From the NCBI GenBank assembly GCA_963832165.1, contig CAWHTE010000011.1, positions 288,001 through 352,000 of the forward strand: a stretch of DNA of 64,000 nt, written 5' to 3'. This document shows, piece after piece, positions 15,116 to 32,896 of this stretch; the first letter of the stretch is position 1; every line of letters starts with the position of its first letter. The notes under the pieces were generated by a model. That model was not told the DNA's origin. It saw only the letters and a list, made by a program, of their open reading frames with translations, and did no database searches. Both the position numbers and the translations under genes were made by a program. Source of the DNA: an uncultured delta proteobacterium (GTDB lineage Bacteria; Myxococcota_A; UBA9160; SMWR01).

Positions 15116-15195
15116 GTAGGGCGGGAGAGCGAAAGCGATCCCGCCGTTCCGACCGTTGCAATGGCGGGATCCGCCTTCGGCTCCTCCCGCCCTAC
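15116..15195. repeat. Inverted REP doublet (REPIN-like) between convergent genes
   Basis: GTAGGGCGGGAGAGCGAAAGCGATCCCGCC ... GGCGGGATCCGCCTTCGGCTCCTCCCGCCCTAC. Confidence 0.85.
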
Positions 15196-16481: not shown

Positions 16482-17670
16482 ATGGCTTCCCATCGGGACC
16501 TCGATCTGTTCGCGCCCACTCCCGAGCACGCGCTGCTCGCCGACACGCTCGAGACGTTCGTCGCGCGCGAGGTGGAGCCGCAGGCGGCCGACCACGACCG
16601 CCGCGAGGCCTTCAACCACGCGCTGTTCCGGCGCGCGGGCGAGCTGGGTCTGCTCGGCGTGACGCTGCCCGAGGAGTACGGCGGCGCCGGGCTCGACGCG
16701 GTCGCAGCGGCGCAGGTGTGCGAGGCGCTCTCGACCTCCGATCCGGGGTTCGCGCTCGCGGTGCTCGCACACGCGATCTTGTTTGCGCAGAACGTGAACG
16801 TGAACGGCAACGACGTGCAGCGCAAGCGCGTGCTGCCCAAGGCCGCCTCGGGCGAGTGGATCGGCGGCATGTGCATGACCGAGCCGGGCGTGGGCACCGA
16901 CGTGCTCGCCATGGCGACGCGCGCGCGGCGCGACGGCGGCGACTACGTGCTCGACGGCACCAAGACCTTCATCACCAACGGCGGCGTCGACGATCACACG
17001 CTCGGCGACGCGTTCGTGGTGTACGCGCGCACGGGCGAGCGCGTGATCAGCTCGTTCCTGGTCGAGCGCGGGATGCCGGGGTTCCGACTCGGTCAGAAGT
17101 GGACCGACAAGCTCGGCATGCGCGCGAGCATCACCTCCGAGCTCGTGTTCGACGGCGTGCGCGTTCCGGCCGAGAACCGGCTCGGCGCCGAGGGCGAGGG
17201 CACGCGCGCGATGATGCGCAACCTCGAGATCGAGCGGCTCACGCTCGCAGCGATGTCGGTGGGCATCGCGCGCCGCTGCCTGCGCGTGATGATCGACTAC
17301 GCGAACGAGCGCAAGAGCTTTGGTGTTCCGCTGCGCGAGCACGGGCAGATCCAGCGCTACCTCGCCGAGACGTTCGCGGAGTACCGGGCCGCGAAGACGC
17401 TCGTCTACGACACCGCGCGCCGGCTCGACCTGGCCTCCACGGGCCAGCGGGTCGACGCCGACGCCGTCGAAGCTGTTCGCGAGCCAGGTCGGCAAGCGCG
17501 CGGCCGACGCCGCGATCCAGGTGCTCGGTGGCTACGGCTACATGGGCGAGTACGTGGTGGCGCGGCTGTGGCGCGACGCCAAGCTGCTCGAGATCGGCGG
17601 TGGGACGATCGAGGCGCACCACAAGAATCTCGCGAAGGACCTCACGCGGGATCCGTCGCAGCTGCGTTAG
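16482..17670 (+). CDS. Acyl-CoA dehydrogenase, isovaleryl-CoA dehydrogenase-like (frameshift near 17470)
   Basis: MTEPGVGTD, GTKTFITNG, KLGMRAS, QVLGGYGY, IGGGTIE. Confidence 0.85.
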
Positions 17671-17684
17671 GCAGGCAGGAGATC

Positions 17685-18578
17685 ATGGAAACGCTTCGCA
17701 CCGAGACGGCGGAGGGCGTGCGCGAGATCGTGCTCTGCCGCGCCGATGCCTACAACACGATCACGCCCGCGCTGCGCGACGAGCTCGCCGCGGCGATCGA
17801 CGCGGCCGACGCGGACCGCGACGTGCGCGTGATCCTGCTGCGCGCCGAGGGGCGCGCGTTCTGCGCGGGCTATGCGCTCGACTGGGGAACGGCCGCGCAA
17901 GCGCGCGAAGCGCGCGCGCAGCGAGGCGAAGCCGAGCGAAGTTCAGAAGGTGGGGCGAGCGAAGCCAAGACCGAGCGCGTCTGGGACTCCGTCGCCGACA
18001 TGCGCATGATCGGGAGCTTCGTCGATACCTACATGAAGCTCTGGTACGCGAAGAAGCCCACGATCGCCGCGGTGCAGGGCTGGTGCATCGGCGGCGGCAC
18101 CGACATGGTGTTGTGTGCGGATCTGATCGTGGCGGGCGAGGGCGCGTCGTTCGGATATCCGCCCTCGCGCGTCTGGGGCACGCCCACCACCGCGATGTGG
18201 GTGTACCGGATGGGTCTCGAGCGCGCGAAGCGCTACCTGCTCACGGGCGACGAGATCCCCGCGCGCACGGCGGCCGAGATCGGGCTCGTGCTCGAGGTGG
18301 TGCCCGACGCAGAGCTCGAAGCGCACGCGCGCGCGCTCGCGCGCCGGATCGCGCGCGTGCCGACCACTCAGCTCGTGATGCTCAAGCTCTTGTGCAACCA
18401 GACGGTGGAGAACATGGGCTTCGCCGCGAGCCGCACGCTCGGAACGCTATTCGACGGGATCGCGCGCCACACCCAGGAAGGTCTCGACTTCGTGCGCCGC
18501 GCCGAGCAGGCGGGCTTCCGCGAGGCCGTGCGCGAGCGCGACGATCCGTTCGGCGACTACGGCAGCCGCCGCCGCTAG
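17685..18578 (+). CDS. Enoyl-CoA hydratase/isomerase (crotonase) with an internal repeat-derived insertion
   Basis: AFCAGY, IAAVQGWCIGGG, YLLTGD; RBS GGAG before ATG. Confidence 0.85.
   Translation: METLRTETAEGVREIVLCRADAYNTITPALRDELAAAIDAADADRDVRVILLRAEGRAFCAGYALDWGTAAQAREARAQRGEAERSSEGGASEAKTERVWDSVADMRMIGSFVDTYMKLWYAKKPTIAAVQGWCIGGGTDMVLCADLIVAGEGASFGYPPSRVWGTPTTAMWVYRMGLERAKRYLLTGDEIPARTAAEIGLVLEVVPDAELEAHARALARRIARVPTTQLVMLKLLCNQTVENMGFAASRTLGTLFDGIARHTQEGLDFVRRAEQAGFREAVRERDDPFGDYGSRRR
17913..17965 (+). repeat. In-frame GAA-hairpin mini-repeat (encodes RAQRGEAERSSEGGASEA)
   Basis: CGCGCAGCGAGGCGAAGCCGAGCGAAGTTC; similar to 31172 and 32137. Confidence 0.75.
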
Positions 18579-25575: not shown

Positions 25576-25659
25576 GTAGGGCGGATTAGCGAGCGAAGCG
25601 AGCGTAATCCGCGTGCAGCCGCTCGCGGATTACGGGCCTTCGGCCCTAATCCGCCCTAC
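25576..25659. repeat. Inverted REP doublet (REPIN-like) between convergent genes
   Basis: GTAGGGCGGATTAGCGAGCGAAGCGAGCGTAATCCGCG ... CGCGGATTACGGGCCTTCGGCCCTAATCCGCCCTAC. Confidence 0.9.
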
Positions 25660-30397: not shown

Positions 30398-31141
30398 TTG
30401 AAGGAGTCGATCGCCAGCGCCGCACAGCGCGCCGCCGCGTATCTGGACGCGCACGGCGATCGGATCACACGCCTGCGCGCGTCCGCGCTGACGGGGCGCG
30501 CGTTCGCATCCGATGTCGTGGCGCAGCTCGCGCCCGAGCCGTCGAACGCGGCCGCGCTGTGCGAGGCGCTCGCGGTGTGCGACGACCTGCGCGCGCTCGG
30601 CGATCCGCGCGTGGCGGAGTGGGCGGAGCCGCTCGCACGCGGTCAGGCGGCGGACGGCGGCTTCGCGCCCGATCTCCCGCTCGAGGCGCGCCTGTTCGAG
30701 ACCGGCATGATCGCGGGGCACCTCGCGAAGACGCGCTACGTGCGTCCCGATCGGCTCGCCGCCGCGGCGGACTTTCTCGCGCAGCACTGGAACCCCGACC
30801 GCGTGCAGGGCGGCTCGTGGTGCGCGATCGCGGCCCACGCGCACTGCTTCGCGAACGTCGACCACGATGCGTCCGACGCCGTGCTGCAGTGGTGCGGGCG
30901 CGAGCTCTCGCGCGCGTTCATCACGCGCGCATTCGATGCCGTGCGCACCGCGCGCGTGCTCGTGTACTGCGACGCGCACGGACTGCCGGGTGCGCAGCTC
31001 GCGCGCGAGGATCTCGTGGTGGCGCTGCTGACCGAGCAGGGCGCGGACGGCGCCTTCCCGACCTGGCAGGGCGAAGGCGCGCGAGACGCGGTCGCATCCA
31101 CGCTCGACGGGCTCGTTGCGCTGGTGCGGCTGGCTGGCTAG
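30398..31141 (+). CDS. Hypothetical protein with prenyltransferase/squalene-cyclase-like QxxDGxF repeats
   Basis: QAADGGF and QGADGAF. Confidence 0.45.
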   Translation: MKESIASAAQRAAAYLDAHGDRITRLRASALTGRAFASDVVAQLAPEPSNAAALCEALAVCDDLRALGDPRVAEWAEPLARGQAADGGFAPDLPLEARLFETGMIAGHLAKTRYVRPDRLAAAADFLAQHWNPDRVQGGSWCAIAAHAHCFANVDHDASDAVLQWCGRELSRAFITRAFDAVRTARVLVYCDAHGLPGAQLAREDLVVALLTEQGADGAFPTWQGEGARDAVASTLDGLVALVRLAG

Positions 31142-31150
31142 CAAGCGGAG

Positions 31151-31224
31151 CGCGCAGCGAGCTGCAAGTTTCGCGCAGCGAGCCGAAGGCGAGCGAAGAC
31201 CATTCGGTGAGCCGAGCGAAGTTC
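31151..31224 (+). repeat. Intergenic cluster of full and partial GAA-hairpin mini-repeats
   Basis: CGCGCAGCGAGC (31151), CGCGCAGCGAGCCGAAGGCGAGCGAAGACCAT (31172), GCCGAGCGAAGTTC (31211). Confidence 0.75.
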
Positions 31225-31243
31225 GATAAGGTAGGTCGCGCGC

Positions 31244-32896
31244 GTGTTGAACCTCGCCTTCCTCCACGAAGCGATCGCGGCAGCGGTGCCCGGGCGCGAT
31301 TGCCTGGTGTTCCGCGATCGGCGCCTGTCGTGGGCCGACGTGACCGATCGCACGCGCCGGCTCGCACACGTGCTGAGGAGCGCGGGCCTCGGCTGCCGGC
31401 GCGAGCGCGCTGCGCTCGAGAACTGGGAGTCGGGCCAGGACCACGTCGCGCTCTACCTGTCCAACGGCAACGAGTATCTCGAGGGCATGCTCGGCGCGTT
31501 CAAGGCGCGCTGCGTGCCCGTGAACGTGAACTACCGCTACGTCGACGAAGAGCTCGTCTACCTGTTCGAGAACGCGCAGGCGCGCGCGGTGATGTTCCAC
31601 GCGCGCTTCGCGCCCACACTCGCGCGGATCCGCGCGCAGCTCACCGACGTGGTGCTGTGGATCCAGGTCGACGACGGATCCGGCACGCCGCTGCTGCCCG
31701 GCGCGCTCGACTACGAGGCCGCGCTCGCGGGCGCGACTCCCATCGCGCCCGAGGCTCTCTCGCCCGACGACCTCTACGTGCTCTACACGGGAGGCACCAC
31801 GGGCATGCCCAAGGGCGTGCTGTGGCGCCAGGAGGACATCTTCCGCGCGGCGCTCTACCCCCGGCCCGACGCGACCTTCGCAGACGTGGTCGCCTACGCG
31901 CAGAAGGGCGACATCCGCTCGCTGCCCGCGCCGCCGTTCATGCACGGCGCAGCACACTGGGTCGCGTTCAACATGTGGTTCGTCGGCGGCACGATCGTGG
32001 TGCAGTCGCACCCGGACCGGCTCGATCCGGTCGACATCTGGTCGACGATCGCGCGCGAGCGCGTGTCCGCGCTCACGATCGTTGGCGACGCGTTCGGGCG
32101 GCCGCTCGTCGACGAGCTGCGCCGCGCCGCAAGTCGCGCGCAGCGAGCCGAAGGCGAGCAAAGGCCATCAGGCTACGACCTGTCGTCGCTGCGCCTGCTC
32201 ACGTCGGGCGGTGCGATCCTCACCGCGTCGCTCAAGCGCGAGCTCCTGGAGCTGTTGCCGGGCGTGCGTCTGCTCGACGCGCTCGGCTCGTCGGAGAGCG
32301 GCGCTCAGGCCAGCCACGCTTCGCTCGATGCGGACAGCGCCGAGACCGGGCACTTCCAGCTCGCGCCCGGAAATCTCGTGCTGCGCGAAGACCTCACGGG
32401 TCCGGTCGCGCCCGGCGGTGGTGAGCAGGGTTGGCTCGCGCGCAGCGGCGCGGTGCCGCTCGGCTACTTCCGCGACGCCGAGAAGACCGCGAAGACCTTC
32501 CCCGTGATCGGCGGCATGCGTTATGCGGTGCCGGGCGACCGCGCGATGCTCGAGGCCGACGGCCGCCTGCGCCTGCTCGGACGCGACTCGGTGACGATCA
32601 ACACGGGCGGCGAGAAGGTGTTCGCGGAGGAGGTCGAGCAGGCGCTCAAGCATCACCCCGCGGTGTACGACGCCGTGGTCGTCGGCACGCCGCACGCGCG
32701 CTGGGGCCAGCAGGTCACCGCGGTGGTGCGGCTGCGCGCGGGTGAATCGCCGTCGGAGGAGGCGCTGCTCGCGGTCGCGCGCGCCCACATCGCCGCGTAC
32801 AAGCTCCCGAAGCGCTTCGTGTTCGTGGACGAGATCCGGCGTTCGCCGAGCGGCAAGGCCGACTATCGCTGGGCGAAGGAAGCGGCGCTGGAGTAG
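31244..32896 (+). CDS. Acyl-CoA synthetase (FadD19-like) with an in-frame mini-repeat
   Basis: YTGGTTGMPKG, GSSE, INTGGEKVFAEEVE, RSPSGKADY. Confidence 0.9.
   Translation: MLNLAFLHEAIAAAVPGRDCLVFRDRRLSWADVTDRTRRLAHVLRSAGLGCRRERAALENWESGQDHVALYLSNGNEYLEGMLGAFKARCVPVNVNYRYVDEELVYLFENAQARAVMFHARFAPTLARIRAQLTDVVLWIQVDDGSGTPLLPGALDYEAALAGATPIAPEALSPDDLYVLYTGGTTGMPKGVLWRQEDIFRAALYPRPDATFADVVAYAQKGDIRSLPAPPFMHGAAHWVAFNMWFVGGTIVVQSHPDRLDPVDIWSTIARERVSALTIVGDAFGRPLVDELRRAASRAQRAEGEQRPSGYDLSSLRLLTSGGAILTASLKRELLELLPGVRLLDALGSSESGAQASHASLDADSAETGHFQLAPGNLVLREDLTGPVAPGGGEQGWLARSGAVPLGYFRDAEKTAKTFPVIGGMRYAVPGDRAMLEADGRLRLLGRDSVTINTGGEKVFAEEVEQALKHHPAVYDAVVVGTPHARWGQQVTAVVRLRAGESPSEEALLAVARAHIAAYKLPKRFVFVDEIRRSPSGKADYRWAKEAALE
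32137..32169 (+). repeat. In-frame GAA-hairpin mini-repeat (encodes RAQRAEGEQRPS)
   Basis: CGCGCAGCGAGCCGAAGGCGAGCAAAGGCCAT; differs from the 31172 copy at two positions. Confidence 0.8.

Follow-up and report, generated by a model that had tools for sequence, protein, structure and literature searches.

A 64,000-nt stretch of DNA from an uncultured delta proteobacterium (the window) carries the same short palindromic repeat inside two unrelated enzymes and between genes, which raises the question of whether a mobile element adds peptides to proteins in this lineage and, if so, how it moves. A first-pass annotation had noted three copies, and all three were present where it placed them, on the forward strand (Table 1). 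The peptides RAQRGEAER and RAQRAEGEQ were found in the translations of the crotonase and the acyl-CoA synthetase, respectively. The element starts had to be corrected, as the GCAAG tag lies further upstream (17897, 31141/31164, and 32129), and the intergenic copy, given as 31151–31224, proved to be a copy nested inside another copy (31141–31235). The tail of the outer copy ends in a Shine–Dalgarno-like purine run (31228–31235), 8 nt before the GTG at 31244, which would serve as a ribosome-binding site. An Rfam search over 31100–32300 matched nothing. The crotonase is a separate gene, and its apparent fusion to the upstream acyl-CoA dehydrogenase arises only via an extra base near 17469. Within the dehydrogenase (16482–17670), this base, probably a sequencing error, shifts the tail and produces an apparent 698-aa fusion with the crotonase. 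The window also contains two inverted pairs of GTAG-tagged REPs (15116–15195 and 25576–25659), which belong to a family of ~200–250 copies.

Table 1 Copies of the repeat and their host genes in the window
Feature	Position	Strand	Remarks
Host gene, enoyl-CoA hydratase/crotonase family protein	17685..18578	+	ATG 17685
Type A element (with 5′ hairpin) in the crotonase	17897..17965	+	
GCAAG tag of the crotonase element	17897-17901	+
GAA-loop hairpin of the crotonase element	17902-17914	+
Core of the crotonase element	17918-17937	+	Followed by the tail
Second GAGCGAAG module of the crotonase element	17957-17964	+
Upstream ORF, 247 aa, without Pfam family	30398..31141	+	Its TAG stop ends in the G with which the outer element's tag begins
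Two copies at a gene junction, one nested in the other	31141..31235	+	Outer element: 31141-31163 plus 31206-31235
Inner type B unit, 42 nt, within the outer copy's apical loop	31164..31205	+	Core 31175-31194
Host gene, AMP-binding acyl-CoA synthetase, 550 aa	31244..32896	+	Without stop or frameshift
Type B unit, 42 nt, in frame within the acyl-CoA synthetase	32129..32170	+	Adds 14 residues (296-309); core 32140-32159

The copy number was determined in the 5.54-Mb genome under study (G000, 89% complete). The exact 17-nt core GCGAGSCGAAGSCGAGC occurs in 114 copies versus 0.29 expected under an order-5 Markov model, a clear excess over chance of the kind on which the first-pass annotation had made its reading depend. 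Under the same model, GCGCAGCGAGSCGAAGSC occurs in 103 copies versus 0.07 expected, and the reversed control pattern gave 1 match versus 143 for the true pattern. With one substitution allowed and neighbouring matches merged, 171 genome sites were obtained.

The 20-nt pattern was present in 28 of 41 genomes of the order, with 1 (G001) to 337 (G014) copies. Its counts were patchy within one genus, from 1 to 145, and G001, which belongs to the same genus and is 95% complete, carries one copy. In a sample of the phylum, 35 of 301 genomes were positive (30 of the 58 genomes of the class and 5 of the 243 others, counted by hand); three of the five positive genomes outside the class carry 4–26 copies. 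The repeat hardly occurs outside a single class of uncultured Myxococcota-like bacteria. Among the 80 of 119 stretches listed, the named records with the repeat are metagenome-assembled genomes labelled Myxococcota or Deltaproteobacteria, and some otherwise. The plasmid search returned only weak Streptomyces matches (E 0.2–0.8), and the phage search returned no match to the repeat. On viral contigs, the repeat was found in 2 and in 16 stretches in two surveys; in two of these contigs (L121 and L122), the element adjoins one and the same 124-aa ORF, which belongs to no Pfam family. Among sequencing runs, none contained more than 0.13 of the repeat's words, and no RNA run was listed among them.

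Filled and empty sites were compared between the genome under study and a congeneric genome (G004). The repeat moved recently: the 69 G004 sites examined include 63 that are syntenic with G000, where 53 of them were empty, 6 were filled as in G004, and 4 had a copy on the opposite strand. Gain could be told from loss only for the four genes that have many orthologues. These comparisons bear out the proposal that a short mobile repeat lengthens enzyme loops by added peptides. The net inserts of single units vary (about 30–46 nt), and no fixed target duplication was seen; at most, a shared G would count as one (87–90% at position 43). Flanks were altered at the joints of one locus (L257). In the 34 of 59 rows that could be used, empty sites matched GCAAG at 2.4 of 5 positions, compared with 1.3 for random sequence, or at about 2.3 of 5 by hand without six rows in which a host word had been taken as the tag. 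The match is only partial, and a strict GCAAG target was set aside. Copies in REP loops and self-nested copies had prompted a palindrome or hairpin-loop target in general, which was rejected: flank pairing equalled that of shuffles (loop sizes 0–6; 75 and 39 units). No clear replication-strand (replichore) rule emerged at 100-kb bins. At one gene start (L274 versus G000 C1:356067), G000 retains only the first bases of the unit and G004 the whole unit, possibly an in-frame loss of 30 nt in G000.

The anatomy of the element was derived from the flanks of at least 190 matches on the purine-rich strand. The unit is modular and about 42–110 nt long, and consists of the GCAAG tag, a variable 5′ hairpin, a GC-GA-stem-GNA-stem-GA-GC core, and a fading tail; the commonest unit has 42 nt and the long form about 100 nt. 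After the tag, type B has a short linker (the 42-nt unit), type A a GNA-capped hairpin, and type C a longer hairpin as well as a second, downstream hairpin bearing tandem GA mismatches. The core is followed by a further GRAG, and conservation of the tail fades over positions 40–49 (75 units in the genome and 39 in relatives). The 5′ end at GCAAG is sharp and the 3′ tail is non-complementary; terminal inverted repeats are lacking. Copies nest in their own apical loop, as at 31141–31235 and in the filled/empty pair of L257, and 42-nt tandem arrays occur in which later units begin with flank-like bases (L054 and L077). By eye, four copies sit in the loops of GTAG REPs, whose tips in this genome share the GA/GNA design and the same words as the core.

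The compensatory stem change reported in the first-pass annotation was confirmed, and the fold proposed there, with GA/GA pairs and a GNA triloop, is backed by stem covariation. Among 189 anchored genome matches, the core stems were GCC/GGC in 110 and GGC/GCC in 41; among 232 anchored matches in loci of relatives, the numbers were 146 and 79, and unpaired GCC/GCC or GGC/GGC occurred only 4 times. The outer pair was GC/GC in 225 of 230 copies of relatives, with 3 compensatory GT/AC, and the type A 5′ hairpins have 9 distinct paired stems in the genome and 30 in relatives. GA/GA was retained in 131 of 136 copies, and the apical loop was GAA in 99, GCA in 20, GGA in 10, and GTA in 5 (n = 145). 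GCGNAGC mini-hairpins are described in PMC13037366 as very stable in DNA and much weaker in RNA; in these DNA hairpins, the middle base between the fixed G and A is free, as it is in the loop of the repeat. Nearest-neighbour folding reproduced the core structure, and the purine-rich strand was slightly favoured. The energies of the two strands differ little (−2.3 versus −1.9 kcal/mol), and we therefore treat a strand-specific stability of the core hairpin as presumptive.

Both coding copies are true insertions relative to orthologues, adding 14 residues to the acyl-CoA synthetase and 17/18 residues to the crotonase, so that a length difference in orthologues was found as well as the copy excess. 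In the acyl-CoA synthetase, 22 residues separate two fixed motifs versus 8 in 21 of 22 scored orthologues and 10 in the remaining one (24 orthologues were compared, 2 being left unscored). The crotonase loop has 32 residues versus 14–15 in three congeners, a net insert of 54 nt relative to G004 and G006 and of 51 nt relative to G002. This loop spans 14–59 residues among 16 scored close orthologues; the element has entered it independently in G016 and G025, and the crotonase homologue 3njb has a long segment at the same place. Mapping on predicted structures, proposed in the first-pass annotation, was done with AlphaFold models and placed both inserts in low-confidence stretches. In the acyl-CoA synthetase model (pLDDT 88 overall), the insert lies at the end of helix 282–302 and in the loop 303–317, with pLDDT below 50 at 305–308; in the crotonase model, it lies at approximately residues 69–92, with pLDDT 44–52 over 61–100.

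Further hosts were found elsewhere in the genome. The RadA loop has 25 residues versus 9–14 in 26 of 27 orthologues, and by eye G002 RadA holds a decayed antisense copy in the same loop. The corresponding segment of ATP synthase gamma has 48 residues versus 11–19 in 19 of 20 scored orthologues. The insert in this gene (C7:395312–396277; L286) amounts to 35 residues, and G031 (L304) has an independent insert of ~14 residues in the same loop. Chloroplast and cyanobacterial gamma subunits carry an insert of their own in this region, that of the chloroplast being regulatory. Length-variable loops were hit independently in the crotonase (G016 and G025), ATP synthase gamma (G031), LigD (L079 and L190), and RadA (G002). 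Among 19 hosts scanned, a Pfam domain spans the insert in RadA, BirA, PurH, ATP synthase gamma, a second AMP-binding enzyme, a luciferase-like monooxygenase, DUF6607, and DUF3604.

The reading frames of the inserted copies were then compared. The first-pass annotation had proposed a single sense frame for the coding copies; the sense orientation held, and two sense frames were found in use. The 20 read-through copies in the genome are all sense, 12 of the RAQR type and 8 of the RSEP type (2 of the 8 doubtful), with none in the third frame. In relatives, 237 copies, 18 of which passed the coding filter, yielded 13 confirmed rows (two of them one tandem insert), all sense, with 5 of the RAQR type, 8 of the RSEP type, and again none in the third frame. 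Leaving out the two doubtful junction copies and counting the tandem insert once gives 30 sites with none in the third frame, for which the probability is about 5e-6 (by hand) if frames are equal. The commonest unit has no stop in any of the three sense frames. The two kept frames are the most hydrophilic and are charge-balanced, and the excluded frame encodes 6 Arg/Lys and no acidic residue; by eye, the only places where this arginine-rich frame turned up were N-termini, one of them a pseudopilin-type leader (L249 and L274). Another 221 copies, surveyed later, yielded a single weak sense row and one antisense candidate (L501), which is unconfirmed. The frame use is most simply read as the outcome of selection on the protein. 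Junction copies at C3:410528–411895 and C11:174322–175134 make RbfA–TruB and CoA-binding–SUI1 read as single frames, which are either real fusions or single-base errors; both were set aside.

Addition of peptides to enzyme loops holds for the coding copies; as the main location of the family it does not, since most copies lie at gene junctions and not inside domains. Among the 171 sites, those with a coding signal on both sides were sense/sense in 82, antisense/antisense in 19, convergent in 10, and divergent in 12 cases; for the GTAG REP of the same genome (n = 197), the corresponding numbers were 32, 20, 81, and 0. A stop triplet precedes the tag by a few bases in 40 of 162 copies versus a background of 8.6%. 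According to crude gene calls, 13 of 81 co-oriented copies are read through; another 15 lengthen a protein at its C-terminus up to a stop/start overlap, 5 lengthen one at its N-terminus, and 1 looks like a coupled mini-ORF. The tails often supply purine runs and GTG codons ahead of the next gene. The sense bias may arise because copies enter the displaced coding strand or because selection acts on the mRNA.

A mobilising enzyme was sought near the copies and across genomes. No enzyme recurred among 198 and 214 neighbouring ORFs (121 and 128 loci), 78 of which were scanned with Pfam; a single Uma2-family match, ~440 nt from one copy, did not recur, and the genes lying between neighbouring copies were ordinary. 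The low-copy and distant genomes gave no candidate mover. The search in the genome under study covered a sequence that is 89% complete, so an enzyme encoded there may have been missed. Among other candidates, DUF559 and reverse transcriptase gave 0 matches, the 6 IS110 matches have ends unlike the repeat, and the one GIY-YIG match in G000 lies inside a 625-aa frame read as UvrC, with no stand-alone gene; no GIY-YIG gene flanked by the repeat was seen in 20 loci checked. None of the Y1 loci (12 in G000 and 20 fetched, from incomplete genomes) was bracketed by the repeat. A RAYT-like Y1 transposase gene at C4:535459 (L282) is bracketed by inverted GTAG REPs with GA/GA pairs and GNA-triloop tips; G000 and G002 are the only genomes enriched in this REP, which is at control level in nine element-rich genomes. 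A divergent 231-aa Y1/HUH family occurs at 11 loci in G000 (for example, C2:485168–485860; L093), with 56–86% identity within the genome; it gave 5–21 matches in 8 of 41 genomes, and several copies have short flanking palindromes of their own. It was rejected as the mover, being missing from the element-rich genomes G003, G004, G005 (99% complete), G009, G016, G029, and G037 and present in the element-free G015.

The repeat was compared with known systems of small palindromic repeats. The first-pass annotation had named the Rickettsia palindromic elements (RPEs) as its precedent, which is apt for an in-frame repeat and too narrow in range, as intragenic REPs, MIRUs, and SMR-A are precedents too. 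Intragenic GTAG/CGTC REPs are tagged short hairpins, patchy among relatives, some of which add 20–30 residues to known genes, and CGTC families have no dedicated transposase (Di Nocera et al. 2013, PMC3733652). The repeat shares with GTAG/CGTC REPs the short stem-loops, high copy number, patchiness, and partly intragenic location, but lacks their tag at the hairpin foot, its own 5′ tag being GCAAG. REPs usually follow genes and often form head-to-head inverted dimers between convergent ones, a convergent setting held by 10 of 171 copies of the repeat versus 81 of 197 of the genome's true REP; the repeat differs further in its sense copies within operons, modularity, self-nesting, and lack of a repeat-flanked RAYT. 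RPEs, listed at about 105–146 bp, likewise insert in frame into conserved genes and are absent from orthologues, and their mover is unidentified (PMC3733652, PMC3184786); by description, the repeat differs in its units of about 42–110 nt, its 70% GC free-living-type lineage, and the keeping of only two sense frames.

MIRUs are similar in being mobile, 40–100 bp long, in sense orientation at operon gene junctions, and overlapping gene ends (PMC3184786, PMC12548453). Their mini-ORF coupled at −4 was seen in only 1 of 81 co-oriented copies, and their terminal tetranucleotide repeats (PMC3184786), compared by description, in one case by eye (L062) and in none generally. The SMR-A/PATE of Haloquadratum are also transposase-free, make no target duplication, insert into the palindromes of other elements, and have an unexplained mobilisation, but SMR-A have terminal inverted repeats and about 110 bp (PMC3119063), whereas the repeat has no inverted termini and is frequent in genes. 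The fixed length and target-site duplication of a MITE are not matched by the variable net inserts. Hairpin repeats of the Ssn nuclease/SRM (NTS) type likewise are acted on as single-stranded DNA, but their small repeat-flanked GIY-YIG gene (PMC11893778) has no counterpart in G000 or in the 20 loci checked. As the repeat shows neither the REP tag, nor a flanked transposase, nor a regularly coupled mini-ORF, nor inverted termini, it was assigned to none of these systems. Its behaviour is like that of intragenic REPs, RPEs, and MIRUs, and the kind of phenomenon is already known. No earlier description of the family was found in Rfam or in the open-access articles searched, and the family is apparently undescribed.

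We favour, with a probability of about 0.6, a single-stranded DNA element that is moved in trans by a nicking enzyme, the joints being finished by host repair. GNA triloops and tandem GA pairs point to a single-stranded DNA intermediate: the non-coding modular repeat would fold as a DNA hairpin, a strand-nicking enzyme encoded elsewhere would probably copy it to new sites, and host repair may complete imprecise joints at loosely matching targets. Selection would then likely retain only harmless insertions, with purifying selection presumably setting frame and loop choice, and at junctions the tails would donate ribosome-binding sites and GTG starts. That the mover is of the HUH/Y1 type or similar to it, and that GCAAG corresponds to the GTAG tag of REPs, is a tentative suggestion that falls somewhat short of even odds. 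Alternatively, host replication or repair alone might copy the hairpin by template switching or microhomology-guided capture, slippage or unequal crossing-over giving the arrays and nests. The ~30–46-nt net inserts, altered flanks (L257), empty sites partly matching the tag, arrays with flank-like unit starts (L054 and L077), and fading tail would all fit this process, as would the failure to find a mobilising enzyme. We nevertheless consider it unlikely, though it is the main rival: different families, and even another class, share the fixed 5′ tag and the strict fold, which points to a protein that recognises them, and counts differ ~100-fold in one genus though the core repair machinery should be common.

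The preference for the sense strand between co-oriented genes (82 versus 19), unlike that of the GTAG REP (32 versus 20), and the tails with purine-rich runs and GTG starts agree with a domesticated RNA-level signal, such as an mRNA stabiliser, ribosome-binding module, or protein-binding site, selected for host benefit in housekeeping operons. Tandem GA pairs are stable in RNA too, which also counts for such a signal. Set against this are sites that differ between congeners, the single copy in the 95% complete G001, the lack of an Rfam match, and triloops that vary as GNA, a DNA rule, and we judge a host-selected RNA signal improbable. Still less can be said for a GTAG-REP derivative moved by the RAYT at C4:535459. 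The REP tips use the core's words and four copies lie inside REP loops, but nine element-rich genomes have the GTAG REP at control level, the RAYT is flanked by REPs and not by the repeat, and repeat and REP differ in genomic context; as a general mover it is largely refuted, and we hold it highly improbable. An extended form of the single-stranded DNA reading, distinctly unlikely in our estimate, is a class-wide GCAAG-tagged element that an undescribed enzyme inserts into the displaced coding strand of active housekeeping operons, making it a natural linker-scanning mutagen. If so, the same tolerant loops (the crotonase lid, RadA, LigD, and ATP synthase gamma) would be hit repeatedly, one frame would feed loops and another positively charged leader peptides, and new protein segments could be watched as they arise.

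How small palindromic repeats without a transposase of their own (CGTC REPs, RPEs, MIRUs, and SMRs) move is an open question in the literature consulted. Because this family was recently active, offers hundreds of filled and empty sites in many genomes, and keeps a strict fold, its tag, fold, and enzyme could be mapped by comparison; direct tests are restricted by hosts that appear to be uncultured. Together, the frame filter and the repeated hits show, as a natural map, which loops and termini tolerate 13–45 extra residues, including those of ATP synthase and RadA. For annotation, such peptides should be read as repeat-derived and not as functional motifs. The frame filter, the recurrent loop hits, and the missing mover are the points of interest to specialists.

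Further repeat structures were also observed in the genome. A long-tailed subfamily has a variable middle and a conserved CTAG end (G000 C11:597152, C8:69263, and C3:381162; relatives L061, L242, and L250) and often gives the stop codon to an opposite-strand gene. CTAG at both ends of this subfamily can be put down at least partly to stop codons. At C1:560600–561050 (− strand), four tandem 114/120-nt units precede a tRNA gene; the beginning of each unit resembles the 5′ end of the tRNA, and each contains a variant core of the repeat. A different repeat, a few hundred bases long and bearing GAA-capped hairpins, is present as inverted pairs at about ten loci (C3:249k, 443k, and 448k; C4:651k; C5:353k).
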